Counted from the stretch's first letter, positions 43,648 through 59,600 are shown. The stretch is DNA of 64,000 nucleotides from Longimicrobiales bacterium (GCA_965204735.1 OZ242008.1:2272001-2336000), one strand, 5' to 3'. Numbers and translations: made by a program. Notes: generated by a model from the letters alone, not told the origin.

Positions 43648-45054
43648 TCACGTCCCAGTCGCGAAGCGGGCCAGGGGGCGGCGAAACCGCCGCCACGTCC
43701 GCCCCAGCAGCAGAAGCGCCACGATGCCCAGCCCGACGGCCAGTCCCCACCACAGCCCGACCGGCCCCGTCCCCGCCGAGAAGCCCAGCCACAAGCTCAC
43801 CGGCAGGCCCACCAGCCAGAACGCCAGCAGGTTGTAGACGAGGGGCCGCAACGTGTCCGCCACACCCCGAAGCGCCCCTGCGCACACGACCTGGATGCCG
43901 TCGAACAGCTGGAAGACGCCCGCCACGGGAATGAGCGCCGCCGCGACCGCCACCACCTCCGGCTGATCGGCGAAGAGCCCGGCCAGCGCGTTGGGCAGCG
44001 AGAGGAAGACCGCCGCCGTGATCGTCATCAGCAGGCAGCACACCAGCACCGAGGCGCCGGCGAAGCGGCGAGCCCGATCCGGGTCGCCGGCCCCCACCGA
44101 GGCGCCGACCATCACGGCGGCCGCCTGGGCCGCTCCCACGGCCAGCATGAAGGTGAGGGCCGCCAGGTTCAGGGCGATCTGATGGCCCGCCAAGGCCACC
44201 GGCCCGAGCCATCCCATGAAGATCCCGATCGCCCCGAAGGCGCCGAACTCCAGCACGAAGTGGAGCCCGATCGGCGCCCCCAGCCGAACCATCCGCCACA
44301 GCGGTCCCCGGGCCAGCGCCTCCCGCCGCGCCGTGCGCAGGTAGGGCCGCAGCGTCGGCCACGCCATCGCCAGGACGGCCGCGAGCATGAACCAGCGGCA
44401 GATCGCGGTGGCCCAGCCGGAGCCCACGGCCCCCATCGCCGGCGCGCCCCACTTGCCGAACACCAGGACCCAGTTGGCCAAGGCGTTGAGGCCGTTGGCC
44501 AGCACCACCACGACCACGATCGCGGCCACCTTCCCCAGCGCCTGCAACGTCTGACGCAGCAGCACGAAGCCGTAGAAGGGAAGCATCCCCGCGATCAGGG
44601 CTCGGCTGTACGCCGCCGCGATCGGCGCCACGTCGTCCGGCTGTCCCAGGACGCGCAGAACCGGCCCCGCCGTAGCCAGCATCAGCGACGAGACGGCGGT
44701 CAGGACCAGGCCGAGGACGGCGCCTCGCTGAATCGCCAGCTCGATCCCCTTCCGGTCTTCCGCGCCGAAGGCCTGGGAGACGAGGGGGTCGAGGACCATG
44801 AGGACCCCCATGCCGAAGACCGACACGCCGAAGAAGTAGAGGTTCCCCAGCGCCACCGCGGCCAGGTCGGGGGCGGAGACCCGGCCCACCATCGCCGTGT
44901 CCACCAACCCCTGCATGACCATTCCCACCTGCACCACGGCCACCGGCGCCGCGAGGGAGAGGAGCCCGCGAAGCTCCGTTGCCGTGGGGCGGAAGGCGGC
45001 AAGTCCCTTGACGGGCGGGGCGCCCGCGACGCCGGCGGGACTACTCCCCCGCAT
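43648..45054 (-). CDS. MATE family efflux transporter (NorM-like)
   Basis: It has about 12 TM segments and the motifs VDTAMVGR, LAAVALG, GSGWAT, LAGHQIALN and FQLFDGIQVVCAGALRG. Confidence 0.93.
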   Translation of the reverse strand: MRGSSPAGVAGAPPVKGLAAFRPTATELRGLLSLAAPVAVVQVGMVMQGLVDTAMVGRVSAPDLAAVALGNLYFFGVSVFGMGVLMVLDPLVSQAFGAEDRKGIELAIQRGAVLGLVLTAVSSLMLATAGPVLRVLGQPDDVAPIAAAYSRALIAGMLPFYGFVLLRQTLQALGKVAAIVVVVVLANGLNALANWVLVFGKWGAPAMGAVGSGWATAICRWFMLAAVLAMAWPTLRPYLRTARREALARGPLWRMVRLGAPIGLHFVLEFGAFGAIGIFMGWLGPVALAGHQIALNLAALTFMLAVGAAQAAAVMVGASVGAGDPDRARRFAGASVLVCCLLMTITAAVFLSLPNALAGLFADQPEVVAVAAALIPVAGVFQLFDGIQVVCAGALRGVADTLRPLVYNLLAFWLVGLPVSLWLGFSAGTGPVGLWWGLAVGLGIVALLLLGRTWRRFRRPLARFATGT

Positions 45055-47242
45055 ACCTCCTGGGCACCGTCACCGTGAACTCGGTGAACTCGCCTTCCTT
45101 GGTCTCGACCCGGAGGCTCCCGCCGTGCTCCTGGATGATCTCGTGGGAGATCGACAACCCCAGTCCCGTGCCCTTGGTGCCGGACTTGGTGGTGAAGAAG
45201 GGGTCGAAGATCTTCTTCACCACCTTCTCGGGAATGCCCGTGCCGTTGTCCCGGATCGACACCAGCACGCGGTCCTCCTCGCCCTTGGTGCGGAGCACGA
45301 CCGTGGGCGAGTAGCCCTCTTCGCCGCTCTTGCGCCGGATCTCCGTCGCCTGGCAGGCGTTGGTGATGACGTTGAGGAAGACGCGGCTCAGGTCCCTGGC
45401 GATCGCGTGGACCTTGCCGGCGTCCTCGTCGAACTCCCGTTCGATCGTCACGTTGAACATCGAGTCGGAGGCCCGGAGCCCGTGGTAGGCCAGCTTGGCG
45501 TACTCGTCCAGCACCTGGTTCACGTCTACTTCCTCGGGCTGTCCCGCCTCCTCCCGGGAGTGGGCCAGCATCCCCTCCACGATCCGGTTGGCGCGCCCCC
45601 CGTGCTCGCGCACCTTGGTGACGTTCAGCTTCAGGTCCCCCAGGATCTCTTCCAGGTACTCGCGGTCGATCTCGCCGTTCTCGTCGTCCTCCATCTCCTC
45701 TCGGAGCTCGTCGATCAGCTCCTTCGAGAGGGCCGCGAAGTTGTTCACGAAGTTGAGCGGGTTGCGGATCTCGTGGGCGATCCCCGCGGTGAGGGCGCCC
45801 AGCGAGGCCAGCTTCTCCTGCTGGGCCACCTGCTGCTGGGTGCGCCGCAGGTTCTCCAGCGTCTCCTCCAGCGCCTCGTTCTTGGCCTGCACCTCGCTGG
45901 CCAGCTTCTCGACCAAGTTGAGGCGCTGCACCTCCAGGGCGTGCTTGCGGAAGACCTCCAGGTCCGCCGCCATGTCGGCCACTTCGTCGTCGCCAGTGAT
46001 CTCGACCTTCACCCTCAGGTCGCCCTGGGTCATGCGCCGCATGGCGTCCGAGAGGTGCTGGACCCTCGCCAGCAGCCGCTCGCCGAAGAACTTCCAGCCC
46101 ACGACGACGGCGGCGGCCACCGCCAGCACGTTGACGGTCAGGATCAGCCACCAGCCCAACCGCAGCAGCGCGCCCGAATCGGACGCGGCGGTTCGGGCCG
46201 CGCCCTCGGCGTTCCCCACCGCCTCGTTGACCTGCTCGACCAGCTCCGAACTCGTCTGGCGGTTCTGGACCAGCAACTCCTGGGAGCGCGCGATCTCCTC
46301 CAGCCACATTCGGCGGGTCGTCAGCACGCCGTCCGAGGCGCCGTCGTACAGCGCCCGCAACGCGTTCACTCGGGGCCGCAGCCGCTCGGCCAGCGCCGGG
46401 GGAACTTCGCCGAGCCCCGCCTCGAGCTGGCTGAACGCGGTGTTGAAGCGCTCCTGGTTGGCCCCCAGCTGGGTGACCAGGTCCTCCGACATCGCCTGGA
46501 ACATGACGGTGACGACCGCGCGCTGGGCGACGCGCAGGTCCACGAGCGCTCGGTGCCGGTCCAGCTCGACCTGGGCGGTCCGCGCCCCCCGGGAGGCCGG
46601 CTGGTCGGTCAGCTCCCGCAAGCCCGTGTCGATGAAGAACTCCTGGTCGTCGAGTTCGCCTTCGAGGAAGTTGGAGATGCTCAGGTCCACCGCCTCGATC
46701 TCGTCGTCGAGGGCCGCCAGCCGGGCGCCGTGCTCCAGCCTCCGGTCCACCGACGTCCTGATCTCCTCGGTCCGGGTCAAGAGGAGCCGAAGCATGGGCG
46801 CCGCGCCCTCGGTCATCCCCTCTTCCTGGGTGATGGCGGCCACCTGCTGCCCCAGGTCCTCCTCCACGGCCAGCACGGTCTGCCAGACGGTCTCCAGCGC
46901 CTCGGGCGTGTCGGCGGCGACCAGCTGGGGCGAGGCCTGGACGAGATCCGACGTGCTTCGAGCCACGGCGAAGGCGGCGACCAGGGCCGGCATGTGGCCG
47001 TCGGTGACCTCCTCCTGGCGGTTGCCCAGGATCGTCATCAGGCCCAGAGCCAGGAAGCTGGCGCACAGGGTCAGCACGACGCCGCCCCCCAGCCCCACCA
47101 CGACTTGGCTGCCGATGCCGAAGCGCCCGCCCGTGACCTTGCGCACGCGTTCGCTCACGCCTTCGGGGAGGATCGACAGAACCCACTCGAACGCCGCCTG
47201 GACGTGCTGGTCCAGTCCCTTCGGGGGACCCGCGGCCTTCAT
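45041..47242 (-). CDS. Membrane sensor histidine kinase (large periplasmic helical domain, HAMP, HisKA, HATPase)
   Basis: Two TM segments flank about 290 aa. It has a HAMP domain (GDL...TGDDEVADMA), an H-box (AGIAHEIRNPLNF), an N-box (NVITNA), DNGTG and FDPFFTTK...GTGLGL. Confidence 0.93.
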   Translation of the reverse strand: MKAAGPPKGLDQHVQAAFEWVLSILPEGVSERVRKVTGGRFGIGSQVVVGLGGGVVLTLCASFLALGLMTILGNRQEEVTDGHMPALVAAFAVARSTSDLVQASPQLVAADTPEALETVWQTVLAVEEDLGQQVAAITQEEGMTEGAAPMLRLLLTRTEEIRTSVDRRLEHGARLAALDDEIEAVDLSISNFLEGELDDQEFFIDTGLRELTDQPASRGARTAQVELDRHRALVDLRVAQRAVVTVMFQAMSEDLVTQLGANQERFNTAFSQLEAGLGEVPPALAERLRPRVNALRALYDGASDGVLTTRRMWLEEIARSQELLVQNRQTSSELVEQVNEAVGNAEGAARTAASDSGALLRLGWWLILTVNVLAVAAAVVVGWKFFGERLLARVQHLSDAMRRMTQGDLRVKVEITGDDEVADMAADLEVFRKHALEVQRLNLVEKLASEVQAKNEALEETLENLRRTQQQVAQQEKLASLGALTAGIAHEIRNPLNFVNNFAALSKELIDELREEMEDDENGEIDREYLEEILGDLKLNVTKVREHGGRANRIVEGMLAHSREEAGQPEEVDVNQVLDEYAKLAYHGLRASDSMFNVTIEREFDEDAGKVHAIARDLSRVFLNVITNACQATEIRRKSGEEGYSPTVVLRTKGEEDRVLVSIRDNGTGIPEKVVKKIFDPFFTTKSGTKGTGLGLSISHEIIQEHGGSLRVETKEGEFTEFTVTVPRRYAGE

Positions 47243-48516
47243 CGGGAAAGACGCTCCACCGGCTGGAACCTGCCGCCTCGGATGACCGTCAGAAACACCT
47301 CGTCGGAGCCCTGGTTGTCGTTTTCCCCGTACTCCACGTGGAAGCCGTCCAGGTCGATGGGGCCGGCCTCGCGAAGCTCTTCGAGGAACCTAACCCGGGT
47401 GGGCTCCTCGTCGGGCTCCAGCCGCCGCAGGACTTCCGCCGCGAGGCGTCCGGCCAAGTACCCTTCCAGCGAGACGAAGCCGGGGACCGCGGCCGGCGCC
47501 ACGGCGCGGAGGGCGGCATGGTAGCTCGCCACCACGGGAACCGACAGGTCGGAGGGAAACGGCACCACCTGGGTCACCACCACCCCGTTGCCCGCGTCGC
47601 CCAGCTCGTTGAGCAAGGCGTTGCTGCCCACGAAGGAGATGTTGACGATCACCGCGTTCAACCCCAGGCGCCGCGCCCATCGGATGAAGACCGCCGTCGG
47701 TCGGTACGCCCCGATGACGATCACCGCCTGAGGGCGTCCCTCCCTGATGTCCAGAAGCGCTCGCTTCACGGCCGTGGTGTTCCGCATGTACGTGCCCTCG
47801 CTGACCAGGGACATGTTGCGCCGGCCCAGGGCGATCCGCACTCCGCTGAGGCCGGCGCGGCCGTAGCTGTCGTCCTGGTACAGGATCGCGATCCGATCGA
47901 AGCCCAGGTCGCCGTTCGCAGGGGAGCCGGTCAGGCGCGCCACCATCTCCTCGGTCTCCTGGTAGTAGGAAGCGCGCACGTTCACCACCGACGGGCGCTC
48001 GTCGGCGCGGAGGAACTCGGCCCCCGTGAACGGCGCGATGTAGGGCACCGACTGGGAGCTGGCCACCGGCTCGGCCGCCGTCGAGGTGGGGGTGCCCACC
48101 GCGCCGATCAGGCCGAAGACGCCCGATTCGATCAGCTCCGCCGTGTTGCGGGCGGCGGCCTCGGGCTCGTAGCCGTCGTCGCGGGCGATCAGCCGAAGCG
48201 CCCGGCCGTGCACGCCCCCGTCTCGGTTCGCCTCTTCGAACGCCGCCCGGATGCCCAGGTTCATGTTGGCGCCCAGCGCCATGGCGTCGCCCGACAGCGC
48301 CGCCGACTGGCCGAAGACGATCGAATCGGGGAACACTCCCTGCGACGGCTCCTGGGACGGCTCCTGGGCCGCGACGCCCCGCCCGAGCACGCCCGCCGCC
48401 GCCAGCCCGGCAACACCGCCCGCTTTGGCGAAGCCGCCCAGCCAGAGCGCGACGCCCCGCCCGAAGCCGCGTCCGCCCGGCCCCGGGCCCCTCGCCCTCC
48501 CGGCTCGCCGGCTCAC
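47239..48516 (-). CDS. Periplasmic substrate-binding protein (type 1, branched-chain amino acid-binding family-like)
   Basis: It contains FGQSAALSG, GIRAAFEEANRDGGVHGR, DDGYEP, VGTPT, NVRASYYQET, YQDDSYG and SLEGYLAG. Its start and stop overlap the neighbouring genes. The start is estimated. Confidence 0.88.
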   Translation of the reverse strand: MSRRAGRARGPGPGGRGFGRGVALWLGGFAKAGGVAGLAAAGVLGRGVAAQEPSQEPSQGVFPDSIVFGQSAALSGDAMALGANMNLGIRAAFEEANRDGGVHGRALRLIARDDGYEPEAAARNTAELIESGVFGLIGAVGTPTSTAAEPVASSQSVPYIAPFTGAEFLRADERPSVVNVRASYYQETEEMVARLTGSPANGDLGFDRIAILYQDDSYGRAGLSGVRIALGRRNMSLVSEGTYMRNTTAVKRALLDIREGRPQAVIVIGAYRPTAVFIRWARRLGLNAVIVNISFVGSNALLNELGDAGNGVVVTQVVPFPSDLSVPVVASYHAALRAVAPAAVPGFVSLEGYLAGRLAAEVLRRLEPDEEPTRVRFLEELREAGPIDLDGFHVEYGENDNQGSDEVFLTVIRGGRFQPVERLSR

Positions 48517-49667
48517 TCGGGCCCCACGTACTTGAGAGCCAAGCAGGTGATGTCGTCGGACTGGGGAGCGTCGCCGGCGTGAGCCTTCACGGCCTTCACC
48601 ACATGGCGCCTCACGTCTTCGGCGCTGGCGCCGGCGCACTCGCCCAGCGAGTTGGCCAGGGCGTCCTCGCCGAACTCCTCGCCGTCCTCGTTCATCGCCT
48701 CGGTGACGCCGTCGGTGTAGAGGAAGAAGGTGTCGCCCGGCTCCAGCTCGATGCTGCCGCCCGGAAACTCGAAGTCGGGGATCACACCCAGCACCAGCCC
48801 CGACTCGCTCTCCACCTGCCTCACCTCGCCCGACGCCTTCACCACGTACGGCAGGTTGTGGCCTCCGTTGGCGTACTCCAGCAGCCCGCTGGACGGGTTG
48901 AAGTTGGTGTAGAAGACGGTCACGAACATCGACTCCTCGTTGGACTCGGCCAGCAGGTCGTTCACCTCGGCCATGCACTTGGCCGGATCGGGGTTTCCGA
49001 TCGCCGTTCCCTTCACCAAGGTCCGGCTGACCATCATGAAGAGAGCCGCCGGCACGCCCTTCCCGGACACGTCGGCGACCACCATCGCCAGCCGGTCGTT
49101 CTCCAGCTTGAAGAAGTCGTAGAAGTCGCCCCCCACCTCCTGGGCCGGCGTCATCCACGCGTGCAGGTCGTAGCGGGGGTCGTCGGGGAAGTCGGTGGGC
49201 AGGATCGACTCCTGCATCTTGGCGGCCACCCCCAACTCCCGGCGCAGAGCCACCAGCTCGTCCCTGGACCGAAGCGCGTCGCGCATGACCTGAAGGTGGG
49301 CCAAGGTCTTGGAGATGGTGGTGTCCAAGTCGTCAAAGTCGATCGGCTTGGTCACGAAGTCGAAGGCGCCGCGGTTCATCGCGGTGCGGATGTTCTTCAT
49401 GTCCCCGTAGGCCGTGACGATCACCGCCCGAAGGTCCAGGTGGAGGCTGTTGAGCTGGTGGAGCAGGGTGAGGCCGTCCATCTCGGGCATGTTGATGTCC
49501 GACAGGACCATGTCCACGTCGCTGTGGGCCCGAAGCTTCTCCAGGGCTTGGACGCCGTTCTGGGCGAAGACCAGGTCGATCTCGCCCTTCCGTATTCTGC
49601 GGCGGAACTTCTGGGTCAGGAGTATCTCGAGATCGGGTTCGTCGTCGACGACCAGGATCTTCGCCAT
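48513..49667 (-). CDS. Response-regulator receiver fused to a SpoIIE/PP2C phosphatase (RsbU-like)
   Basis: The REC domain reads MAKILVVDDE, SDINMPEMDG, TAYG and DFVTKP. The PP2C domain reads VGGDFYD, ADVSGKG, NGGH, YTDGVTEA and QSDDIT. Confidence 0.93.
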   Translation of the reverse strand: MAKILVVDDEPDLEILLTQKFRRRIRKGEIDLVFAQNGVQALEKLRAHSDVDMVLSDINMPEMDGLTLLHQLNSLHLDLRAVIVTAYGDMKNIRTAMNRGAFDFVTKPIDFDDLDTTISKTLAHLQVMRDALRSRDELVALRRELGVAAKMQESILPTDFPDDPRYDLHAWMTPAQEVGGDFYDFFKLENDRLAMVVADVSGKGVPAALFMMVSRTLVKGTAIGNPDPAKCMAEVNDLLAESNEESMFVTVFYTNFNPSSGLLEYANGGHNLPYVVKASGEVRQVESESGLVLGVIPDFEFPGGSIELEPGDTFFLYTDGVTEAMNEDGEEFGEDALANSLGECAGASAEDVRRHVVKAVKAHAGDAPQSDDITCLALKYVGPE

Positions 49668-49825
49668 TCGGAATCGCTCCGCGTCCCCCCGACGGGCCTT
49701 CTTCGTCCGCCGGGGGCCGGCTTGGGGATGAAGGAGGGCGGCCGCCCCGGGTGGACGACCCCATGCAACAAATGTAGCGCCCCGTCCATCGAACCGCTTG
49801 CGGACTCCGGACGCCTCGCCGTGCC

Positions 49826-49914
49826 GCGGACGGCCCCTGCGCGAGGTGGACAGCTTGGAGCCTCCCGGCGTCTCCCGAGCCTCCCGGCGGACGACCCCTG
49901 CGCAAGGTGGACAG
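49826..49914. repeat. 28-bp direct repeat (two copies, 61 bp apart) in the divergent PP2C/glnA intergenic region
   Basis: GCGGACGGCCCCTGCGCGAGGTGGACAG (49826-49853) and GCGGACGACCCCTGCGCAAGGTGGACAG (49887-49914) differ at two positions. Confidence 0.85.
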
Positions 49915-49936
49915 TCCCCGTCGAATCTTGTACAAT
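49908..49936 (+). promoter_or_regulatory. Candidate sigma70 promoter for glnA
   Basis: The sequence is TGGACA-17 nt-TACAAT, with each hexamer one mismatch from consensus. A GAGGAG element follows upstream of the glnA ATG. Confidence 0.6.
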
Positions 49937-50010
49937 GTTGCCGCGCGGACGGGCGGACCCGACCGGCGCGACCTAATCCCTTCAGCCCCATGAGGAGACC
50001 ACTCCGCAAG

Positions 50011-51420
50011 ATGGCAGACATCGACGCAGTGCTCGGAACGATCCGAGACCGGGACGTGGAGTTCGTGGACCTGCGGTTCACGGATCCCCGCGGCCGCTGG
50101 CACCACGTGACCCTGACGACGGACGCCTTCGACGAGGACGCCTTCGAGGACGGAATCATGTTCGACGGTTCCTCCATCGCAGGCTGGAAGAGCATCGACA
50201 AGTCCGACATGGCTCTCTTTCCGGACCCCGGGACCGCCGCCATGGACCCCTTCATGGCCGACAGGACGCTCTATCTGATCTGCGACGTCCACGAGCCCAC
50301 GACCGGCGAGCGCTACTCCCGCTGTCCCCGCTCCACCGCCAAGGACGCCGAGGCGTACCTGGCCTTCTCGGGAGTCGGCGACACGGCCTACTTCGGCCCA
50401 GAGCCGGAGTTCTTCCTCTTCGACGACGTGCGCTTCGGCGTCGACCCGAACCACTCCTTCTTCCGGCTGAACGACGTGGAGGGCCCCTACAACACGGGCA
50501 GCGCGCTGGAAGGCGGGAACAAGGGCCACCGGCCGCGCACCAAGGGCGGCTACTTCCCCCTCCCGCCGGTGGACTCGGTGCAGGACGTCCGCAGCGACAT
50601 GCTCAAGGCGCTCAACCACGCCGGCGTCGCCGTGGAGAAGCACCACCACGAGGTCGCGGCCAGCCAGCACGAGCTGGGGATCGTCTTCGCCCCCATGACG
50701 ATGATGGGCGACAAGCTCCAGGTGTACCGCTACGTGGTGCTGAACGTGGCGGCGCGTCACGGCAAGACGGCGACCTTCATGCCGAAGCCGGTCGTCGGCG
50801 ACAACGGCTCCGGGATGCACTGCAACCAGTCCGTCTGGAAGGAAGGCGAGAACCAGTTCTCGGGAACGGGCTACTCCGACCTTTCGGAGACCGCCCTCCA
50901 CTACATCGGCGGGATCATGAAGCACGCCCGGGCGATCAACGCCTTCTCCAACCCCAGCACGAACAGCTACAAGCGCCTCGTGCCGGGCTTCGAGGCGCCG
51001 GTGCTCCTGGCCTACTCGGCCCGCAACCGCTCCGCCTCCTGCCGCATCCCCCACGTCACGTCGGCGAAGGCCCGACGGGTCGAAGTCCGCTTCCCGGACC
51101 CCACGGCCAACCCCTACCTGGCGTTCTCGGCCATGCTGATGGCCGGGCTGGACGGCATCGAGAACCGGATCGACCCCGGCCCGCCGATGGACAAGGATCT
51201 CTACGCTCTGCCGCCGGAGGAGCTGAAGGACATCCCCACCGTCTCCCACTCGCTGCGGGACGCCTTGGACGCCCTCGAGTCGGACCACGAGTTCCTGACC
51301 CGGGGCGATGTGTTCACCAAGGACCAGATCGACGCCTACGTCGAGCTCAAGATGGACGAGGTGGTGCGGTTCGAGCAGGCGCCCCACCCGGTCGAGTACG
51401 ACATGTACTTCTCGCCGTGA
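50011..51420 (+). CDS. glnA: Glutamine synthetase type I (adenylylatable)
   Basis: It contains [65 protein letters not shown] and the adenylylation loop [12 protein letters not shown]. Confidence 0.97.
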
Positions 51421-51475
51421 CCGCTGGGGAAGACGCGAACCGCAACGAACAGCGAGAACCACGGCCGAGCACGGC

Positions 51476-54433
51476 GTGACGACCGACGGCGTGCTTGCCG
51501 TTGCGGCAGGCGTTCCCGGGTTCGGAAGCCTTCGGGGACACAGGGAGGAAGCCGCGGCGGCAGGGCTGTCCCGGTTGCGCGACGCGGCCGAGCGAACGGG
51601 AAGGACGGCTCTCGGGGAGGCCTTGGGGTCCCCCGAGGGCCGGGTCTTCTTCTCGTTTCTGCTGGGCAACAGCCCCTACCTGACTCGACTGCTCCTCCGG
51701 GACCTGGAGTTCTCCCAGAGCCTGGTGGAGGATTCGCCGGACGCCGTGGTCGGCAGGATTCGGAACGAGCTGGCGGAGGCCGATCCGACGATGGGCCGGG
51801 ACGAGCTCATGAAGTTCCTGCGCTTCCAGCGGAGCCGGGTGGCCGTGGTCGCGGCGGCGTGGGACTGCTTCGGCGTCGCCGACGTCATGGAGTGCTGCGC
51901 GCTCCTCTCGGACATGGCCGACCACGCCGTCCGCCTGGCCGTCTCCCACCTGCTGCTGGACCGGGTGCGGCGCGGCGAGATGAAGCTGCCCGAGGAGGAG
52001 TCGCCCGGAGGCAGCAGGCGCTGGGGGTACTTCGCGCTGGCCATGGGCAAGCACGGCTCCCGCGAGCTCAACTACTCCTCCGACGTCGACTTGGTGGTGC
52101 TCTACGACCCCGATGCCGTGGAGTACACCGGCTCGCGGAGCCTGCGGGACTGCTTCGTCCGGGTCACCCGCGACCTGGCCCGCATCCTCCAGGCGCGCAC
52201 CGCCGACGGATACGTCTTCCGCACGGACCTGCGCCTCCGTCCCGACGCGTCGTCCACCCCTCCGGCGATCGAGGTGGAGTTCGCGCTGAACTACTACAAC
52301 ACCTTCGGGCGCACCTGGGAGCGGGCCGCCCTGATCAAGGCGCGCCCCGTGGGCGGGGACCTGGAGGCGGGCGCGGCGTTCCTGTCGCGGCTGTCGCCCT
52401 TCATCTGGGACGAGGGACTCGATTTCACTTCGGTGGAGGAGATCCGCTCGATGAGTCAGCAGATCCACGACTTCCACGGCCACGGCGCCGTCTCGGCGGC
52501 AGGTCACGACGTGAAGCTGGGACGCGGCGGCATACGCGAGATCGAGTTCTTCGTCCACATGCACCAGCTGGCCTACGGAGGGCGCAACCGCAGGCTGCGG
52601 GGGGCCGGGCTGCTGGCGATGCTGGAGACGCTGGAGGAGGAGAACCACGTCCTGCCCCGGGAGACGGCCACGCTGCGCAAGAGCTACCTGCTGCTGCGGC
52701 GGGTCGAGCACCGCCTCCAGATGATCAACGACGACCAGACCCAGAAGCTCCCCGAGACGGCGGACGGGCTGGAGCACGTGGCCGCGTTCATGGGGCTTTC
52801 GTCCGCCGAAGAGCTGTCGGGGATGGTCGAGCGCTCGGCCGATCAGGTCCACGACCTCTACCGCACCCGCTTCAACGTCCCCGAGAGCGAGCAGGACATC
52901 ACCGCCACGATCCTGGAGGGTCCCGAGGGCTCCTCCGACGCCGTGGCGAAGCTGGAGGCCGCCGGATTCGTCCGGGCCCTCACCGCCGTGGAGATATTCC
53001 GGGGCTGGGCCGAGGGCCGCTACGAGGCCACGAGCACGGAGCGCGCGCGGACGATCGTCCGGGAGATCCTCCACGAGATCATCGCCGCGCTGGGCAAGAC
53101 CCCCGACCCGGACCGGGCGCTCGCCCGGATGGACAAGTTCCTGGACGCCCTCCCCGAAGACGTCTCCTTCTTCTCCATGCTTCGGGCCAACACCTGGCTC
53201 CTCAACCTCATCGCCGTCGTGATGGGAAGCGCCCCCCGGATCGCGGACACGCTGGGCGCCCACCCTCGTCTGCTGAAGGCGGTGCTGGACCCGTCGTTCT
53301 TCCTGCCGCTTCCCGACCGGGCATCCCTCGTCGCGGAGCTGGAGGAGCAGCTGGAGGAAGTGGCGGGCGCCGAGGAGCGGAGCGCCCGAACGGCGGCGTG
53401 GGCGGACGACCGCCGCTTCCAGGTCGGCGTCCAGACGTTGCAGAACCTGGTCACCGTGGACGAGGCGTCCACGTCCCTCTCCCACATCGCCGAGGTGTCG
53501 ATAGAGGTTCTGCTGCGGGACGTGCTGGCCGAGCTTCGGGAGCGCCACGGCGAGGTGCCGGGAAGCTCGTGCGCCGTGGTGGCGATGGGCAAGCTGGGCG
53601 CCCTCGAGATGACCTTCGAGTCGGACCTGGACCTCCTCTTCGTCGCCGACGTGGAGGACGAGTCGCGGGAGAGCCTGGGACCCAAGCCCGTCGAGGCCCG
53701 GCGCTTCTACGCCCGGGCGGCGCAGCGGCTGATCGCCGCCCTCCAGACCCGGTCGGCGGCCGGCAAGCTCTACGAGGTGGACATGCGGCTGCGGCCTTCG
53801 GGCGAGAGCGGACCGCTGGTGACCACGCTTCGCGCCTTCCGCGAGTACCACGCAGGAGCTGCCTGGACGTGGGAGCACATGTCGCTCACCCGGGCCCGGG
53901 TCGTGGCGGGGGACCCTGCGGCGGTAGCGGCTGCGGAGGCCGAGATCCGGAGGGTCCTGACCCGCGACCGCGACCCGGACGAGCTGCTCCGGGACGTGGC
54001 GCAGATGCGTCGGCGGGTCGCCGCCGAGTACCCGTCCACCGAGCCCTTCGAGCTCAAGTACGTGCGGGGCGGACTTGTGGACTTGGAGTTCGTCGCCCAG
54101 TATCTTCAGTTGCTCCATGCGAAGCACGACCCCCAGGTGTTGGCCGGGGGAACCGTTGCATGCTTGCGGGCCCTTGCAGGCGCGGGATTCCTGGACGCCG
54201 AAGAAGCCGAGTTCTTGGCCGACGCGGTTGGAATGCAGCGTGCCATCCAAGCGATCTTGAGGCTCGCATGGAGCGGAAGCGACTCGGTGCGTTCGGCCCC
54301 GAAGGCACTTCGCAGCAAGCTGGCCAACGCCCTCGAATGCGACGACTTCGACGAGCTGGAGTCGAAGCTGCGGGGCACGCAGGAGAAGGTGCACGAAGCC
54401 TTCCGTCGCCACCTCGGCCGGGAGGTCGAATGA
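51476..54433 (+). CDS. glnE: Bifunctional glutamine synthetase adenylyltransferase / adenylyl-removing enzyme
   Basis: It has two nucleotidyltransferase halves: MGKHGSRELNYSSDVDL...DLRLRPD...KLGRGGIREIEF and MGKLGALEMTFESDLDL...DMRLRPSG...KYVRGGLVDLEF. The start (GTG) is estimated. Confidence 0.95.
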   Translation: MTTDGVLAVAAGVPGFGSLRGHREEAAAAGLSRLRDAAERTGRTALGEALGSPEGRVFFSFLLGNSPYLTRLLLRDLEFSQSLVEDSPDAVVGRIRNELAEADPTMGRDELMKFLRFQRSRVAVVAAAWDCFGVADVMECCALLSDMADHAVRLAVSHLLLDRVRRGEMKLPEEESPGGSRRWGYFALAMGKHGSRELNYSSDVDLVVLYDPDAVEYTGSRSLRDCFVRVTRDLARILQARTADGYVFRTDLRLRPDASSTPPAIEVEFALNYYNTFGRTWERAALIKARPVGGDLEAGAAFLSRLSPFIWDEGLDFTSVEEIRSMSQQIHDFHGHGAVSAAGHDVKLGRGGIREIEFFVHMHQLAYGGRNRRLRGAGLLAMLETLEEENHVLPRETATLRKSYLLLRRVEHRLQMINDDQTQKLPETADGLEHVAAFMGLSSAEELSGMVERSADQVHDLYRTRFNVPESEQDITATILEGPEGSSDAVAKLEAAGFVRALTAVEIFRGWAEGRYEATSTERARTIVREILHEIIAALGKTPDPDRALARMDKFLDALPEDVSFFSMLRANTWLLNLIAVVMGSAPRIADTLGAHPRLLKAVLDPSFFLPLPDRASLVAELEEQLEEVAGAEERSARTAAWADDRRFQVGVQTLQNLVTVDEASTSLSHIAEVSIEVLLRDVLAELRERHGEVPGSSCAVVAMGKLGALEMTFESDLDLLFVADVEDESRESLGPKPVEARRFYARAAQRLIAALQTRSAAGKLYEVDMRLRPSGESGPLVTTLRAFREYHAGAAWTWEHMSLTRARVVAGDPAAVAAAEAEIRRVLTRDRDPDELLRDVAQMRRRVAAEYPSTEPFELKYVRGGLVDLEFVAQYLQLLHAKHDPQVLAGGTVACLRALAGAGFLDAEEAEFLADAVGMQRAIQAILRLAWSGSDSVRSAPKALRSKLANALECDDFDELESKLRGTQEKVHEAFRRHLGREVE

Positions 54434-54909
54434 GGGAAGGCCGAGCCGGGAGAAGCAGCTGCGTGGGTCCCAAGGTGAAGACGGACGTCAAGCTGGACGA
54501 GGCCGAACCGAGGCGCGTGGTCAAGCTCTTCGAGCACTTCGCAGCCGAGCACGGATTGCCCGTCGAGATGGTGCAGCGCTTCGAGCTGGCTCTGGACGAG
54601 GTCTTGACCAACGTGGTGAGCTACGCCTTTCCCGACGGCGCCGAAGACCCCAGCGTCAGGGTGACGATGCAGATGGACGACGCGTGGCTGAAGGTTCGGG
54701 TCCAGGACAACGGACCCGAGTTCGACCCGCTCCACGATGCTCAGGAGCCCGATCTTTCCCTCGACGCCGAAGAGCGCCCCATTGGGGGCCTCGGCATCTT
54801 CCTCGCCAAGACGTTCGTCCATACGCTCACCTACGAGCGAGTGGACGGATGCAACCGCCTTACCCTCTCACAGCCCCTGGAGGCTCCCTCGGAGAACGCC
54901 AATCCATGA
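54430..54909 (+). CDS. Anti-sigma-factor-type Ser/Thr kinase (RsbW-like HATPase)
   Basis: It contains ELALDEVLTNVVSYA, DNGPEFDP and ERPIGGLGIFL. The ATG overlaps the glnE stop (ATGA), with GGAGG upstream. Confidence 0.88.
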   Translation: MREGRAGRSSCVGPKVKTDVKLDEAEPRRVVKLFEHFAAEHGLPVEMVQRFELALDEVLTNVVSYAFPDGAEDPSVRVTMQMDDAWLKVRVQDNGPEFDPLHDAQEPDLSLDAEERPIGGLGIFLAKTFVHTLTYERVDGCNRLTLSQPLEAPSENANP

Positions 54910-55238
54910 AAGTGACCACGACGCATTCCGGGAACACGGCGGTGGCCGCCGTGAACGGCCGGGTCGACTCCGCCAACGCGAAGGACCTGGACCAGGAACT
55001 CAGCACCATCATCGAAGGGGGCGTCAACCACCTGGTGGTCGACTGCTCCGAGCTGAGCTACATCAGCAGCGCCGGCCTCCGCGCGCTCCTCGTCGCCATC
55101 AAGAAGACCAACGCGGCCGGCGGAGGCGTGGCGATGTGCCAAGTCCCGCCGCACATCCGCGAGGTGCTGGAGGTCAGCGGCTTCACGCGCCTGACCAAGG
55201 TCTTCGACACCTCGGCGGAAGCCGAAGCCAGCTTCTAG
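54906..55238 (+). CDS. STAS domain anti-sigma factor antagonist (RsbV/SpoIIAA-like)
   Basis: The 110-aa protein contains GRVDS, VVDCSELSYISSAGLRALL (conserved phosphoacceptor Ser region) and EVLEVSGF. It has an ATGA overlap with the upstream gene. Confidence 0.92.
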   Translation: MKVTTTHSGNTAVAAVNGRVDSANAKDLDQELSTIIEGGVNHLVVDCSELSYISSAGLRALLVAIKKTNAAGGGVAMCQVPPHIREVLEVSGFTRLTKVFDTSAEAEASF

Positions 55239-55281
55239 CCTAGCCTGGCTCCGGCGCGCCAGCAGCTTTCTAGCTCCGGCG

Positions 55282-55413
55282 CCCCCCGGCTGGCGCCCCT
55301 TTGCGGCGGGCAGCTTGCGGGCGCCGGCCCCCCGGCTGGCCCCTTTGCGGCGGGCGGCTTTCTGGCTCCGGCCCCCCGGCTGGCACCCCTTTGCGGCGGG
55401 CAACTTGCGGGCG
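55282..55413. repeat. Three imperfect ~45-bp tandem repeats between convergent genes
   Basis: The core ccccccggctggc(gc/ac)ccctttgcggcgggc occurs three times. The tails alternate between agcttgcgggcg and ggctttctggctccgg. Confidence 0.85.
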
Positions 55414-55463
55414 ACCGCCCCTGGGAGATGGAGCCGGGGGACCCGGAAGAAGCCAGGGGACCC

Positions 55464-56531
55464 CTAGAAGAAGGTGAACGCCTGCACCTTGAAGGACCAC
55501 TCGGTCTGGTTCTCTATCGTCCGATAGAAGTCCAGGTTGGCCGAGATGCCGTTCCTGCCCGCGGCGTACAGCATGACCCCTGGCGTGACCACCAGACCGC
55601 TCACGTTCGCGCCTTCGTCGTTCTCGGTGCGGGCCCAGCTCAGCCGGAAGAGGGGCTCGACTCCCGCGAAGGCCCGGTCCTCCGCCAGGGGCACGTACCA
55701 CAGCCCCATGACCTGGAAGGCCGAGAAGCCCGCCTCGTCGTTCACCTTCCAGTTCCGGCCGGTTGTGCCGTTCACGAGGAGGTGGGGGCCGTCGCGCCAC
55801 GTGCCGACCTCCAGCTCCATGCCGTAGGCGGGAACCCGCAGCGTCTGGTCCTCGGAGCCCAGCGTCTCGTCCATGGCCGCGTACGCGGACAGCCGACCGC
55901 GGTCGCCGAAGAAGTAGGAAAGCCGGCCTGACGCGGACTTGGCGTTGTTCACGTCCTTCTTGCTGATGCCCTGGCCGTTGGTCAGGGTGAAGCGGTATCC
56001 CAAGCGGCGGTTCGCGAACCGCCCGGTGGCGAGGATGCCGGGTTCGTAGCCGTCCAGGCCCAGGCTGAAGGTCAGCTTGCCGAACGAGCACACGCCCCCC
56101 ACGCCGGGACACTCGTCGATGCCGGTGACCCGACCGTCCCGCTCGATCAGGGGCAGGTCGGAGTTGGCCGCGAGCCAGAAGTAGGAGACGGCCCGCTTGA
56201 ACTGGCCGATCTGCAGCTGGAAGGATTCGGAAGGCGTCAGGGCGAGATACGCCTCCAGCGTGGTGGACCCTTGGGCGTCGAACTGGAGGCGTCCCCCCAC
56301 CAGGTCGTTGAGGGAGCCGTCGATGGTGACCCAGGCTCGGCGGATGAAGAAGCTGGACGGCGCGGCGCTGGGGCCCGGCATCTCGTACTGGGCCTGGATT
56401 CGCGCGCCCAGTGTGACACTGGACCCGCTGCGGGCAGTGAAGGTCTGGGCGGCGGAGGGCGCCGCCGCGCCGGCGGCCAGGACCATCGCTGCCAGAACGC
56501 CGGCCGAGTGTCGAAGGGCACGGTGGGTCAT
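55464..56531 (-). CDS. Outer-membrane porin (OprO/OprP-like)
   Basis: It has a signal peptide ending SAA|Q, the motifs FFIRRAW, LEAY, QIGQFK and NGQG....D.NNAK...GR, amphipathic beta-strands and a C-terminal Phe. Confidence 0.75.
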   Translation of the reverse strand: MTHRALRHSAGVLAAMVLAAGAAAPSAAQTFTARSGSSVTLGARIQAQYEMPGPSAAPSSFFIRRAWVTIDGSLNDLVGGRLQFDAQGSTTLEAYLALTPSESFQLQIGQFKRAVSYFWLAANSDLPLIERDGRVTGIDECPGVGGVCSFGKLTFSLGLDGYEPGILATGRFANRRLGYRFTLTNGQGISKKDVNNAKSASGRLSYFFGDRGRLSAYAAMDETLGSEDQTLRVPAYGMELEVGTWRDGPHLLVNGTTGRNWKVNDEAGFSAFQVMGLWYVPLAEDRAFAGVEPLFRLSWARTENDEGANVSGLVVTPGVMLYAAGRNGISANLDFYRTIENQTEWSFKVQAFTFF

Positions 56532-56630: not shown

Positions 56631-59600
56631 CTACTTGAAGGTGATCGTGCCGACGACTCCGACGCGGCGTTCCGGGGGCTGGAAGCCGTCGGCCGCCTGC
56701 TCGCCGAAGAAGTCCATCACCAGGCGGAGGCCGGGGTCCTGCTCGGCGGTTTGGCCGCCCAGAGTGGCCCATTGCGTCCCCACATTCAGGCGGTAGCCGG
56801 CCGCGCCCTCGCGGCTCCAGCGGCCGAACGGCTTGATCCGACCGCCGCCGGGCAGCACCAACCCGTAGCCGACCTCCATCGCCAGGCGGGACGGGGCCCA
56901 GCCCCGGGCGTCCTGGGTCGCTCCGAAGCCGTGGGCGGACGGGAAGCCGTGGGCCGGCCCGACGCCGTGGCTCGGGGGACCGCCGTGGCCAGTGGGGCCG
57001 CCGTGGCCGGTGGGGTCGTGGCCGGTGGGGCTGCCGTGGCCGGTGGAACCTCCCTGACCGGTGGGGCTGCCGTGGCCGGCTTGGTCGCCGGCGGCGGGCA
57101 CGGTGCTGCCGGGCTGCACCGCCGGACCCGGCGCGCCCAGGCCCGGCACGCCCGCGCTGCGCCACACGTCGCCGCCGCCCTGCCACAGCGTCTGCGCGCC
57201 CCCCGAAGCATTGCCCCACGACGGCTCCAGCGAGAACGACAGCCCGCCGTCTTCGCGGCCGGGCTGGACCCGCAGCGCCACCGCCGCGCCCCACTCCTTG
57301 AAGTTCCGGTCCTGGTGGATCAGCAGCATCCGGCCTCGCGCGTCCAGGCTCAAACCGCTGCCCGCGTGCACCAACCCCAGCTCGGCGCCCGCTTCGGCCC
57401 CCATCCCCGTCTCCGCGTCGCCACCGTCGTAGCGACCGCCCACCTCGATGCGCGTGCGCATGGCGACGCTGCCGCTCGTCCACTGCCCGCCCAGCTCGGG
57501 CGCCAGCCGCACCCGCTGCGCGCCAGCCGTCACCGCCGCCACGTGCACGTCCGACGCGTCCGTCATCATGCGCACCGCGAAGGCGTCGGCCTTCAGCGCC
57601 AAGCCGCCCACCAGCCGCTGGCGCACGCCCAGCGCGCCCATCCGCATCCGCAGGTCGGCGTCGTAGGTGGGAGGACCCATCTCGCCCACGTTGGCGGCGC
57701 CCCGCCCCGCGCCGGCCAAGCCCCAGATGCCGAAGCCGCCCTGGGACGACCAGCTGGCGTAGGGGTAGAGGCTGTTCAGGTGGGCCTTCGTCTTGCCCAC
57801 GCCGTTGATCCCGCTCTCGTAGTTCGCCGCCATGTCGCTGCGCGAGCCGGCCAAGCCCATCAGGAAGCCCGAGCCGAAGCGGTAGTCCAGGCCCAGGTAG
57901 GCCGAGCGGGTGCGGCCGTCCATGGCGAAGTCGTCTTCGGGGCGGCCCTCGAACTCGCCCATGTTGGCCTGGCCCCACAGCGTCCAGCCCGTCTGGGAGG
58001 CCGTCTGCGCCGGGGACGCGCCGGGCGAGGCACTGGCGGAGCTGGCGGCATCGGCGTCGGCGCCGCCCTGGCCGTCGGGCGAGCCGCCGCCGAAGGAGAG
58101 CTGGAACGAGCTCCGGGAGCGGAGGTCGCGGCCTGTCAGCGGGCTGAAGGCGATGCCGCCGTGCGTGCGCTCGGCACGGCCCGCGTCCTCTTCCCGCTGG
58201 CCCTGGTACGAGCCGCCCTGGCCGAGGGCGCCGCTCGGGGCGCCGCCCAAGCCCGCTGCGCCGTCGCCGAAGAAGATGGCGGCCAAGTCCAGCGTTCCGC
58301 CCGGGGTGCCGCCGGGTCCCGACCCGGCGGTGCCCGGATGGGTGACCTGGAGGCCCAGCAGCCCGGTTGCGTCCCGCACCAGCGACTCGAGTCCGCAACG
58401 ACCGCCCGAAACGCCCCCACCCCAGCCCGCACCGGCGTGGGACGAGGCCGTGCCGTCGAACGCGACGCCCGCGCCACGGCCGCCACCGAACGCGACGCAG
58501 CTCAGCGAGCGCCCGCCCAGCTGCACGTGCGAACGGCCCCGCGAACCCGACGACTCCAGACCCAACCGACCGCCGATCGCGTCGACCGTCTCCGTTCCCA
58601 GCGATCGTCCGAACGCCGCCAGCGTCAGCTTCAACGCCCGCGCCCGATCCGCACGCGACGCCGACACCGTCACGCTCGCCTGTTGCGTCGCCGTCAGCCC
58701 GCCCGCATCCGTCGCCGTCACCGTCACCACCGTCGCGCCGATCTCCCGCGGCGCCACCGACAGCCGTCCCGCGCCCGACACCGACGCGGCCGCCACGCTC
58801 GGCGACGACGACACCACCACGTAGCTCAGCGCGTCGCCGTCCGGGTCCCGGAAGTACTCGCCCAGACCTACCTCCCACGGCGCACCGCCCACCTCCAGCA
58901 CCGGCGGCGACAGCGAGCCCACCGCCTCCGGCCCCTCGTTCACGTTCAGCAGCGTCACCACGACCGCAGCCTCGGCCGTTAGACCGCCGCCGTCCGTCAC
59001 CCGCACCACCAGCGCGAACTCCGGTGGACCGTCCTCGTAGTTCTCGCCGGCACCCACGTAGCGCACACGCCCGCTGGCCCCGTCCACCTGGAAGCGGCCC
59101 GCGTCGCCCTGCGCCAAGCTGTACGTCAGCACGTCGCCGCGGTCCGGGTCCGTCGCCTCGACCCGTCCCAGCTCCCGAGGCCCGCGCACGTTCTCCGCCA
59201 GATCGAAGGCGTACGCAGAGTCCACGAACGCGGGCGCCTCGTTCACGTCCAGCAGCAGCACCCTCACCTTCGCCACCGCCGCCAACCCCGCCCGGTCCGT
59301 CGCCACCACCTCGAACTCCCAGCCCTCAGGACCCGTCTCCGCGTCCTCGCCAGCGCCCACGTACCGCACCACCCCGCTCGACTCGCCCACGTCGAACAGC
59401 GCCGCGCTCGCGCCGCTCAAGCTGTAGCGCAGCGTGTCGCCCGCGTCCACGTCCGTTGCCTCGACCGCGCCGAGCTCCACCGGGCCCGCCACGTGCTCCG
59501 CCAGCTCCCACTCCCAGATCGACTCCACGAACACCGGGCCCTCGTTCCGGTCCTCGAGCGTCACCACCACTCGGGTCCGCGCTGTCAGGCCGCCTCGGTC

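Follow-up and report, generated by a model that had tools for sequence, protein, structure and literature searches.

Genomic and comparative analyses indicated that a locus in a Longimicrobiales bacterium, centred on seven genes at positions 45041..55238 of the window, belongs to an island of nitrogen-uptake genes into which a sigma-less partner switch is built, and that the stand-alone STAS protein of this switch likely has the role that PII plays elsewhere. The window is the whole stretch of DNA analysed, 64,000 nucleotides in length (GCA_965204735.1 OZ242008.1:2272001-2336000, here G000:C1:2272001-2336000), and its source genome, G000, consists of one contig of 4.14 Mb with 98.15% completeness; the nearest relatives of its glnE, among the best 80 of 363 matches, are found in Longimicrobiales (Gemmatimonadota) assemblies. 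The original prediction, made from the sequence, had described these genes as a complete partner-switching cascade built around glnA-glnE, with an extracellular solute as input and glutamine synthetase (GS) or its adenylyltransferase GlnE as possible output. A complete switch with no linked sigma gene, tied to nitrogen assimilation in a genome lacking PII and GlnD matches, was borne out, and the switch is probably solute-sensing, as proposed. GS/GlnE as the main output was not supported, the near-constant partner of the switch being an ammonium transporter (Amt) encoded just outside the window.

All seven predicted genes were recovered at their positions with the families assigned to them and with intact catalytic motifs (Pfam/TIGRFAM profiles and translations). 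The minus-strand arm encodes a REC-PP2C phosphatase (48513..49667; PF00072 and PF07228), an orphan periplasmic binding protein of the Peripla_BP_6 family, predicted to be the co-receptor of the kinase (47239..48516; PF13458), and a sensor histidine kinase with a TorS-like periplasmic four-helix sensor, HAMP, HisKA and HATPase_c domains (45041..47242). The predicted stop/start overlaps of this arm were confirmed, as GTGA at the phosphatase/binding protein junction and ATGA at the binding protein/kinase junction. The divergent plus-strand arm encodes a type I GS, glnA (50011..51420; TIGR00653, 645 bits against a cut-off of 429), followed after 55 bp by an alphaproteobacterial-type GlnE (51476..54433; PRK14108, 956 bits against a cut-off of 724), an RsbW/BtrW-type serine kinase (54463..54909; PF13581, score 84 against a cut-off of 27; alternative start ATG at 54430) and the stand-alone STAS protein (54906..55238; TIGR00377 above cut-off). 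Kinase His490, receiver Asp57, the metal-binding PP2C aspartates, STAS Ser55 (the predicted phosphosite), the GS adenylylation residue Tyr398 and both GlnE aspartate triads (203/205/251 and 717/719/769) are all in place. As for the proposed ATGA coupling of this arm, the rsbW/STAS overlap stands, whereas the glnE/rsbW ATGA (54430-54433) is present and may not be used, since homologues begin about 11-16 codons after ATG 54430 and GTG 54463 is therefore the likelier rsbW start.

The module has the components of RsbU/V/W-type switches. STAS Ser55 aligns with the SpoIIAA serine that is mutated to alanine in PDB 1tid and is invariant in 46 aligned STAS sequences; the RsbW-like kinase, a GHKL protein, aligns to RsbW (PDB 6m36) with matching N, G1 and G2 boxes and does not reach the equivalog cut-offs for RsbW or SpoIIAB; and the phosphatase belongs to the PP2C/SpoIIE family (PF07228, E 3e-56), carries the metal-binding aspartates in its translation and has a ratio of nonsynonymous to synonymous substitution rates (dN/dS) of 0.04-0.22 in the pairs tested. 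The RsbW-like kinase is predicted to phosphorylate, and the PP2C to dephosphorylate, this STAS protein. The linked cognate alternative sigma gene of SigB/SigF-type switches is missing: the absence of a sigma gene noted for the window extends well beyond it, the nearest of the 20 sigma-70 region-2 matches in G000 lying about 200 kb from the locus.

Seventy-six glnE loci were fetched from the best 80 of the 363 matches; the glnE tree, which omitted the partial loci L052, L056 and L065, placed 46 loci in one clade spanning Gemmatimonadota, Latescibacterota, Spirochaetia and Pseudomonadales, with 30 alphaproteobacterial-type loci as outgroups. The search handles overlap and the genomes are kin, so that this and the following counts are not independent tests. 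Seven of the 76 loci repeat the seven-gene order of the window, L031 has a rearranged version and four loci lack only glnA, and glnE is followed directly by the STAS gene in 9 of 14 gammaproteobacterial loci; glnA-glnE alone occurs in seven loci, and glnE alone in 13 Spirochaetia loci. No STAS or RsbW match was found in the flanks of the 30 outgroup loci. Because the order repeats while STAS and RsbW are confined to non-outgroup flanks, the arrangement is not a product of chance, and the proposed glnA-glnE-rsbW-STAS linkage is conserved, with glnE followed by STAS in a second phylum too.

A survey that took the switch rather than glnE as its starting point gave a different picture of the partners. 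Of 401 evenly sampled Gemmatimonadota genomes, 56, G000 included, were scored as switch-bearing from a phosphatase of at least 69% identity. Among the 55 others, full-length glnE was found in 9 and a remnant in 3, leaving 46 without a full-length copy, and window-type glnA was found in 3 and missing from 52; the type I GS of g6 and g91 genomes is of another kind, and no g52 genome has one (0/24). In metagenomes, the same STAS gene occurred in 12 of 26 loci, seven of which extend to amt and none of which contains glnA or glnE. The switch is therefore not built around glnA-glnE, as had been proposed; GlnE looks like an accessory client or partner, and both genes sat mid-island and have mostly been lost since.

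The constant partner is amt, which in G000 lies beyond the window (G000:C1 2339585-2341006). An island-type Amt (at least 66% identity) is encoded in 54 of the 55 switch-bearing Gemmatimonadota and in 14 of 14 switch-bearing Latescibacterota, gammaproteobacterial and Spirochaetia genomes chosen, and in none of 11 same-family genomes without the switch (the count covered 80 of 97 intended genomes; two matches were split and two contained a stop). Of 69 switch-bearing genomes, 68 thus retain it, including those in which it lies far from the switch. GS type III was rejected as a constant client: it occurs in 35 of the 80 genomes, in none of the g6, g91 or 14 other-phylum genomes, and in 7 of 11 switch-negative relatives.

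The STAS gene itself is repeatedly found beside amt. The order rsbW-STAS-amt occurs in five of five Latescibacterota-type loci, with phosphatase, binding protein and kinase genes 22-25 kb away (three genomes checked); a gene for a polyketide synthase of about 3,400 amino acids splits the island in these genomes (L128:2038-12279, L125:4436-14803). Among 20 amt regions fetched, six gammaproteobacterial genomes have amt followed directly by a gene for a 249-residue STAS-glyoxalase-like fusion (L261:6682-7431, L262, L270-L273); in L261 a SulP transporter gene then follows, and a same-sized gene does so in four more. Genome G092 has three STAS genes, one with the phosphatase, one behind amt and one behind glnE. 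STAS thereby adjoins both classical clients of PII, in differing gene orders, and no PII-sized gene other than STAS was found beside the island amt genes examined. In Spirochaetia, a Cache-HAMP-PP2C-RsbW-like fusion is encoded near an island-type amt (L195:14904-17489, L133:2933-5449).

All 40 island Amt proteins examined end in an acidic tail of at least 11 residues, whereas 9 of 11 comparison Amts end 3-6 residues after the same motif. Their nearest solved relatives are ammonium receptors (8qj3, 6eu6); both pore histidines are kept, no fused transducer domain was found in the island Amt, and the N1/N2 signature of the receptors Ks-Amt5 and Sd-Amt1, as given in PMC11152129, is missing, the first Gln being Cys and the Asp being Leu. 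The reading as an N1/N2 receptor was rejected on this ground, and the island Amt, failing the published signature, is more likely a transporter than a receptor.

GlnE presents a more complex pattern. Its N-terminal half matches PDB 1v4a and its C-terminal half 3k7d, the domain order following these structure matches and the description in bioRxiv 10.64898/2026.09.02.748916, with whose AMP loop the position of GS Tyr398 also agrees. The island glnE is an extra copy in the five gammaproteobacterial and five Spirochaetia genomes tested, each of which also has its own glnE. All 14 gammaproteobacterial island GlnEs keep a complete N-terminal (adenylyl-removing) triad and have lost the first aspartate of the C-terminal (adenylyltransferase) one; the STAS encoded behind these genes clusters with that of the window, separately from the phosphatase-linked STAS of the same genomes, in a weak tree of 112 columns. 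A dead C-terminal domain was also considered for the Spirochaetia GlnEs and rejected, as 12 of 13 keep the aspartates and only neighbouring motifs are lost. Six g52 GlnEs have lost aspartates in both triads and remain full length, encoded between the phosphatase and rsbW, in genomes with no type I GS match. These broken copies are under purifying selection, with dN/dS of 0.19-0.25 (15 pairs, Nei-Gojobori, GC-rich genes) compared with 0.15-0.31 for intact copies, and their C-terminal half is the least conserved part. Since they are kept full length under selection without a type I GS, their sequences indicate that GlnE has a role in the operon that needs neither GS nor catalysis, yet is dispensable. 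Separately, genes fusing a fatty-acid-desaturase domain to a GlnE-like nucleotidyltransferase domain (697-809 amino acids) were seen at L182:6748-9108, L183:5716-8145 and L184:4766-6859, the first adjoining polyprenyl synthetase and RND transporter genes; similar weak matches occur in over 20 of the 55 g6, g52 and g91 genomes and not in G000.

Textbook control of Amt gating and GS adenylylation runs via PII. Genome-wide searches of G000 detected no PII, GlnD or glutamate synthase (GOGAT) large subunit, the PII control search being positive in 13 of 14 genomes, so that the absence of PII reported for the window holds for the entire genome. The same searches found one GlnE, one type I GS and one Amt; the suggested check for other glnA copies revealed no second type I GS and one GS III-like gene (C1:3484554-3486743). 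G000 thus pairs two glutamine synthetases, type I and type III-like, with no match to the large subunit of glutamate synthase. In terms of the PII-GlnD-GlnE cascade, a bifunctional GlnE and a type I GS with the adenylylation tyrosine are present and PII and GlnD are missing. PII was not found in any of the 12 Longimicrobiales genomes with the cluster glnE and was present in all 38 others searched; in the 401-genome sample it occurs in 8 of 56 switch-bearing genomes, all eight belonging to g6, versus 172 of 345 others. The closest characterised type to the G000 GlnE is that of Rhodospirillum rubrum, reported to need unmodified PII to adenylylate GS (bioRxiv 10.64898/2026.09.02.748916), and by analogy an intact GlnE in a PII-less genome may therefore need another trigger.

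On the input side, kinase residues 56-479 match the TorS model TIGR02956, and the atlas feature for the TorS-sensor cluster stands at 0.96; PF21689 gave no match on the window kinase and matches two distant homologues. The binding protein has PDB 4kv7 as its best sequence match (E 4.5e-63) and a structural model with a predicted local distance difference test score of 91.8. Its gene adjoins that of the kinase in switch loci, and a 60% homologue lies beside a chemoreceptor with a TorS sensor in an unrelated genome (L243), so the binding protein and TorS-type sensor look like a portable sensing unit. Stimulation of a TorS sensor by a binding protein is described in PMC8050422. A 37% paralogue of the binding protein is encoded at L084:3680-7070 (G000:C1:2023679-2027069), followed by a stand-alone single-Cache protein and a major facilitator superfamily transporter. 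In a sample of 401 Pseudomonadota, no close orthologue of the kinase was found (the best match was 31% over part of the sensor), nor any donor or cultured carrier of the switch. The habitat may be that of a sponge symbiont, to judge from the names of the taxa and from L128, which encodes a sup-like polyketide synthase.

From gene content, motifs, co-occurrence and selection, we infer the protein contacts of the following scheme. A solute would enter through the linked porin and load the binding protein, which, by analogy with TorT-TorS, would dock on the TorS-like sensor of the kinase. As known for these families and with the motifs present, the kinase would phosphorylate receiver Asp57 and so set PP2C activity, and the PP2C and the RsbW-like kinase together would set the phosphorylation of STAS Ser55. 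Gene context suggests that one form of STAS may bind the cytoplasmic face of Amt, perhaps at its conserved acidic tail, and that STAS may also bind GlnE and shift GS adenylylation. A role of the switch in nitrogen metabolism is highly probable, and an output acting after translation is somewhat more probable than not. The scheme as a whole, with the phosphorylation state of STAS set by a solute outside the cell and with STAS taking the part of PII towards Amt and optionally GlnE, has an even chance of being correct. Direct contact of STAS with Amt is a tentative proposal falling a little short of even, and direct contact with GlnE is doubtful. The same doubt attaches to the fullest version, in which STAS substitutes for PII, its solute-set phosphorylation both gating Amt and directing GlnE, with one gammaproteobacterial copy per client and with GlnE turned into a non-catalytic partner in the lineage lacking type I GS.

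A transcriptional output is unlikely, albeit well worth weighing. In that case the RsbW-like protein would hold a remote sigma factor or regulator, possibly the primary sigma factor, as proposed for Chlamydia (PMC8256260), and STAS, once dephosphorylated, would release it so that amt, glnA and the CP-ATP-grasp operon are expressed. Such chemistry is canonical for the family (PMC8256260), the 20 sigma-70 region-2 matches of G000 are available to it, and it would explain both the position of the switch among several nitrogen-scavenging genes and its outliving the loss of any client, as in genome G172. However, all loci scanned yielded only two sigma genes, one in L169 and a G073 gene present in both L135 and L259, and these are not conserved; with the patterns used, no enrichment of sigma-54, SigB, NtrC, GlnR or TnrA-like motifs was detected before amt or in the divergent region. 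A primary-sigma-type motif lies upstream of amt in 31 of 40 regions versus 3.3 in shuffles, a count tempered by the fact that the pattern was written after viewing the sequences; a similar motif precedes 5 of 50 tRNA genes. In the divergent region, a primary-sigma-type promoter-like site of glnA (TGGACA-17-TACAAT, 49908..49936, plus strand) keeps its -35 element in 7 of 8 aligned regions, and a putative conserved -10-like hexamer of the leftward operon (49771..49776, minus strand) is seen in 7 of 8; a 20-bp direct repeat at 49834 and 49895 is found only in the G000 intergenic region and was treated as a local duplication. The few, unconserved sigma genes and the primary-sigma motifs make control by an alternative sigma factor less likely and leave the case for control of the primary one untouched. 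A transcriptional output would also leave unexplained the extra STAS genes behind amt and glnE and the selection on catalytically broken GlnE. NtrBC-type control was rejected, as the three sigma-54 activators of G000 lie elsewhere in the genome and no sigma-54 or NtrC motif is enriched.

It is improbable that the switch merely shares a mobile island with the nitrogen genes and acts on another process, for instance formate metabolism or a surface trait. The single GlnE clade across four phyla is consistent with block transfer, G172 has the switch without Amt, and formate genes do occur nearby: at L131:13215-18142 and L194:300-5199 the kinase gene is followed immediately, in the same direction, by an NAD-dependent formate-dehydrogenase-like operon of three genes, genes matching it in size occur in the gammaproteobacterial loci L196, L277 and L278, and a formate-tetrahydrofolate ligase gene follows the porin gene in g6. 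Against hitch-hiking, island fragments still pair STAS with amt or glnE, or the phosphatase with CP-ATP-grasp genes, in at least five orders, and the island-type Amt is kept almost without exception, even far away. That GlnE, Amt or both are inputs reporting internal glutamine/ATP or ammonium to the switch is quite improbable: doubly broken GlnEs are conserved without a GS substrate, the C-terminal half senses glutamine in Escherichia coli and Herbaspirillum (bioRxiv 10.64898/2026.09.02.748916) and the Amt resembles solved receptors, but conservation in the broken GlnEs is lowest in precisely that half, and the Amt keeps both pore histidines and lacks the receptor signature.

Several observations weigh against a switch in which STAS performs the task of PII. 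The strongest single one is G172 (99% complete, one contig), which has the switch and no Amt, glnE, type I GS or PII match. The counts overstate independence, since the genomes are related and the genes seem to have been transferred together as a single island, and the formate-dehydrogenase-like operon after the kinase in four gammaproteobacterial loci is a link outside nitrogen metabolism. The glnE gene is lost or fragmented in 18 of 24 g52 genomes, and two further g52 copies are decaying (dN/dS 0.33-0.52, one of them split); 3 of 14 gammaproteobacterial genomes keep the extra glnE without a close STAS gene, the 13 Spirochaetia glnE loci have no STAS gene nearby, and nine other fetched amt regions (9 of 15) have no adjacent STAS gene. 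Streptomyces coelicolor GlnE works, and Herbaspirillum GlnE AMPylates GS, without PII (both as reported in bioRxiv 10.64898/2026.09.02.748916). Finally, about half of Gemmatimonadota lack PII regardless of the switch, and PII is present in all 34 non-Longimicrobiales genomes carrying this GlnE clade and in 8 of 11 g6 genomes, which rules out strict replacement of PII. Switch and PII occur together in three phyla, so the switch is an additional layer running in parallel, and it stands alone in some lineages.

Further genes flank the seven on both sides. A MATE transporter gene (43648..45054, minus strand; PF01554) overlaps the end of the kinase gene; it occurs in some lineages only, being missing from L012, L031, g6, g91 and other-phylum loci, and is probably a passenger. 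Beyond a short GC-rich repeated stretch (55239-55430), a gene for a porin-like outer-membrane protein (55464..56531, minus strand; weak PF07396 match) adjoins STAS in most Gemmatimonadota loci, and directly adjoins amt in L006, L008 and L009. In G000 a minus-strand cadherin-repeat adhesin-like gene of 3,503 codons (56631..64000, running on to G000:C1:2339142) lies between porin and amt genes, an insertion unique to G000 among the four genomes of its genus compared; the island resumes with amt 3.6 kb past the window end and continues with CP-ATP-grasp (G000:C1 2341020-2342504), alpha-E (2342529-2343506), transglutaminase (2343503-2344411) and Gcw_chp (2344506-2345231) genes. CP-ATP-grasp/alpha-E/transglutaminase operons are reportedly induced by nitrogen starvation, and Gcw_chp often adjoins glnK-amtB. 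In marine metagenomes, the CP-ATP-grasp, alpha-E and transglutaminase families co-vary with urea-metabolism domains (PMC3597751). Other island neighbours include genes for amidohydrolases, purine-type permeases and formate-dehydrogenase-like proteins, which are leads only to the ligand.

Elsewhere in G000, a second STAS-RsbW-GAF/PP2C set (C1:570454-572863, L082) has no neighbouring sigma gene, sits between phosphate-acetyltransferase-like and ksgA-like genes (names read off translations) and could cross-talk with the switch of the locus. On its minus strand the window also has an open frame (1-26856) that spans 8,951 codons or more and runs off the left end, and no Rfam match was found in the window. 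A 16-base motif recurs every ~745 bases in two long arrays (G000:C1:397087-407623 and 597981 onward), which are probably repeats inside giant genes.

Among known systems, Bacillus RsbU/V/W-SigB and SpoIIE/IIAA/IIAB-SigF have protein families and phosphosite in common with the G000 switch, which differs in having no linked sigma gene and a kinase below the RsbW/SpoIIAB equivalog cut-offs; in Bacillus cereus RsbK-RsbY, a histidine kinase reportedly feeds a receiver-PP2C, as it would here. Bordetella BtrU-BtrW-BtrV and Vibrio fischeri SypE-SypA likewise combine a PP2C, an RsbW-type kinase and a stand-alone STAS with serine 55/56, and PMC8256260 describes no cognate sigma for them and an output that is unknown or post-transcriptional; unlike them, the G000 locus has a binding protein and a TorS-like kinase feeding its receiver-PP2C, and its context is nitrogen uptake rather than secretion or biofilm. 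Direct action on an enzyme has been described for the partner-switch-like HenR-Alr3423-All4160 module of Anabaena, where the STAS domain is fused to a glycosyltransferase (PMC13555669), whereas here STAS is free or glyoxalase-like-fused and Amt and GlnE are the candidate clients. PII control (GlnK-AmtB and GlnB-GlnD-GlnE) involves these same two candidate clients and, as with STAS here, a small regulator gene beside amt or glnE (bioRxiv 10.64898/2026.09.02.748916; PMC11152129); unlike PII, STAS is of an unrelated family and would switch by serine phosphorylation from an outside signal. TorT-TorS also places a transporter-less binding protein beside a kinase with a TorS-type sensor (PMC8050422), but here the binding protein is Peripla_BP_6 rather than Peripla_BP_1, the kinase is not hybrid and the regulator is a phosphatase rather than a transcription factor. 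Mycobacterium GlnH-GlnX-PknG, in which a solute-sensing binding protein leads to a phosphorylation change (PMC8050422), is an analogue in how it works, with no protein families in common with the G000 switch in its cytoplasmic part. Sigma-less switches acting on proteins are thus on record (Btr, Syp and HenR-All4160; PMC8256260, PMC13555669), and a literature search, largely without subscription papers and supplements, found no described partner switch tied to Amt or GlnE. In the mycobacterial system, the PknG substrate GarA is a small adaptor that acts on enzymes of glutamate metabolism.

A nearly complete genome thus encodes an intact GlnE, an adenylylatable GS and an Amt with no PII or GlnD match, and a partner switch is the regulator built into its cluster. 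Both the GlnE pseudo-enzyme, which is conserved, and the GlnE copies without the adenylyltransferase aspartate are oddities in their own right; none of the proteins involved is out of the ordinary, and each can be expressed in E. coli. Should STAS bind Amt or GlnE, a class of sigma-less switches that often lack a known output would gain a concrete target, and nitrogen control would have a second route, one that answers a solute from outside, perhaps from the host, by way of a protein family with no relation to PII.

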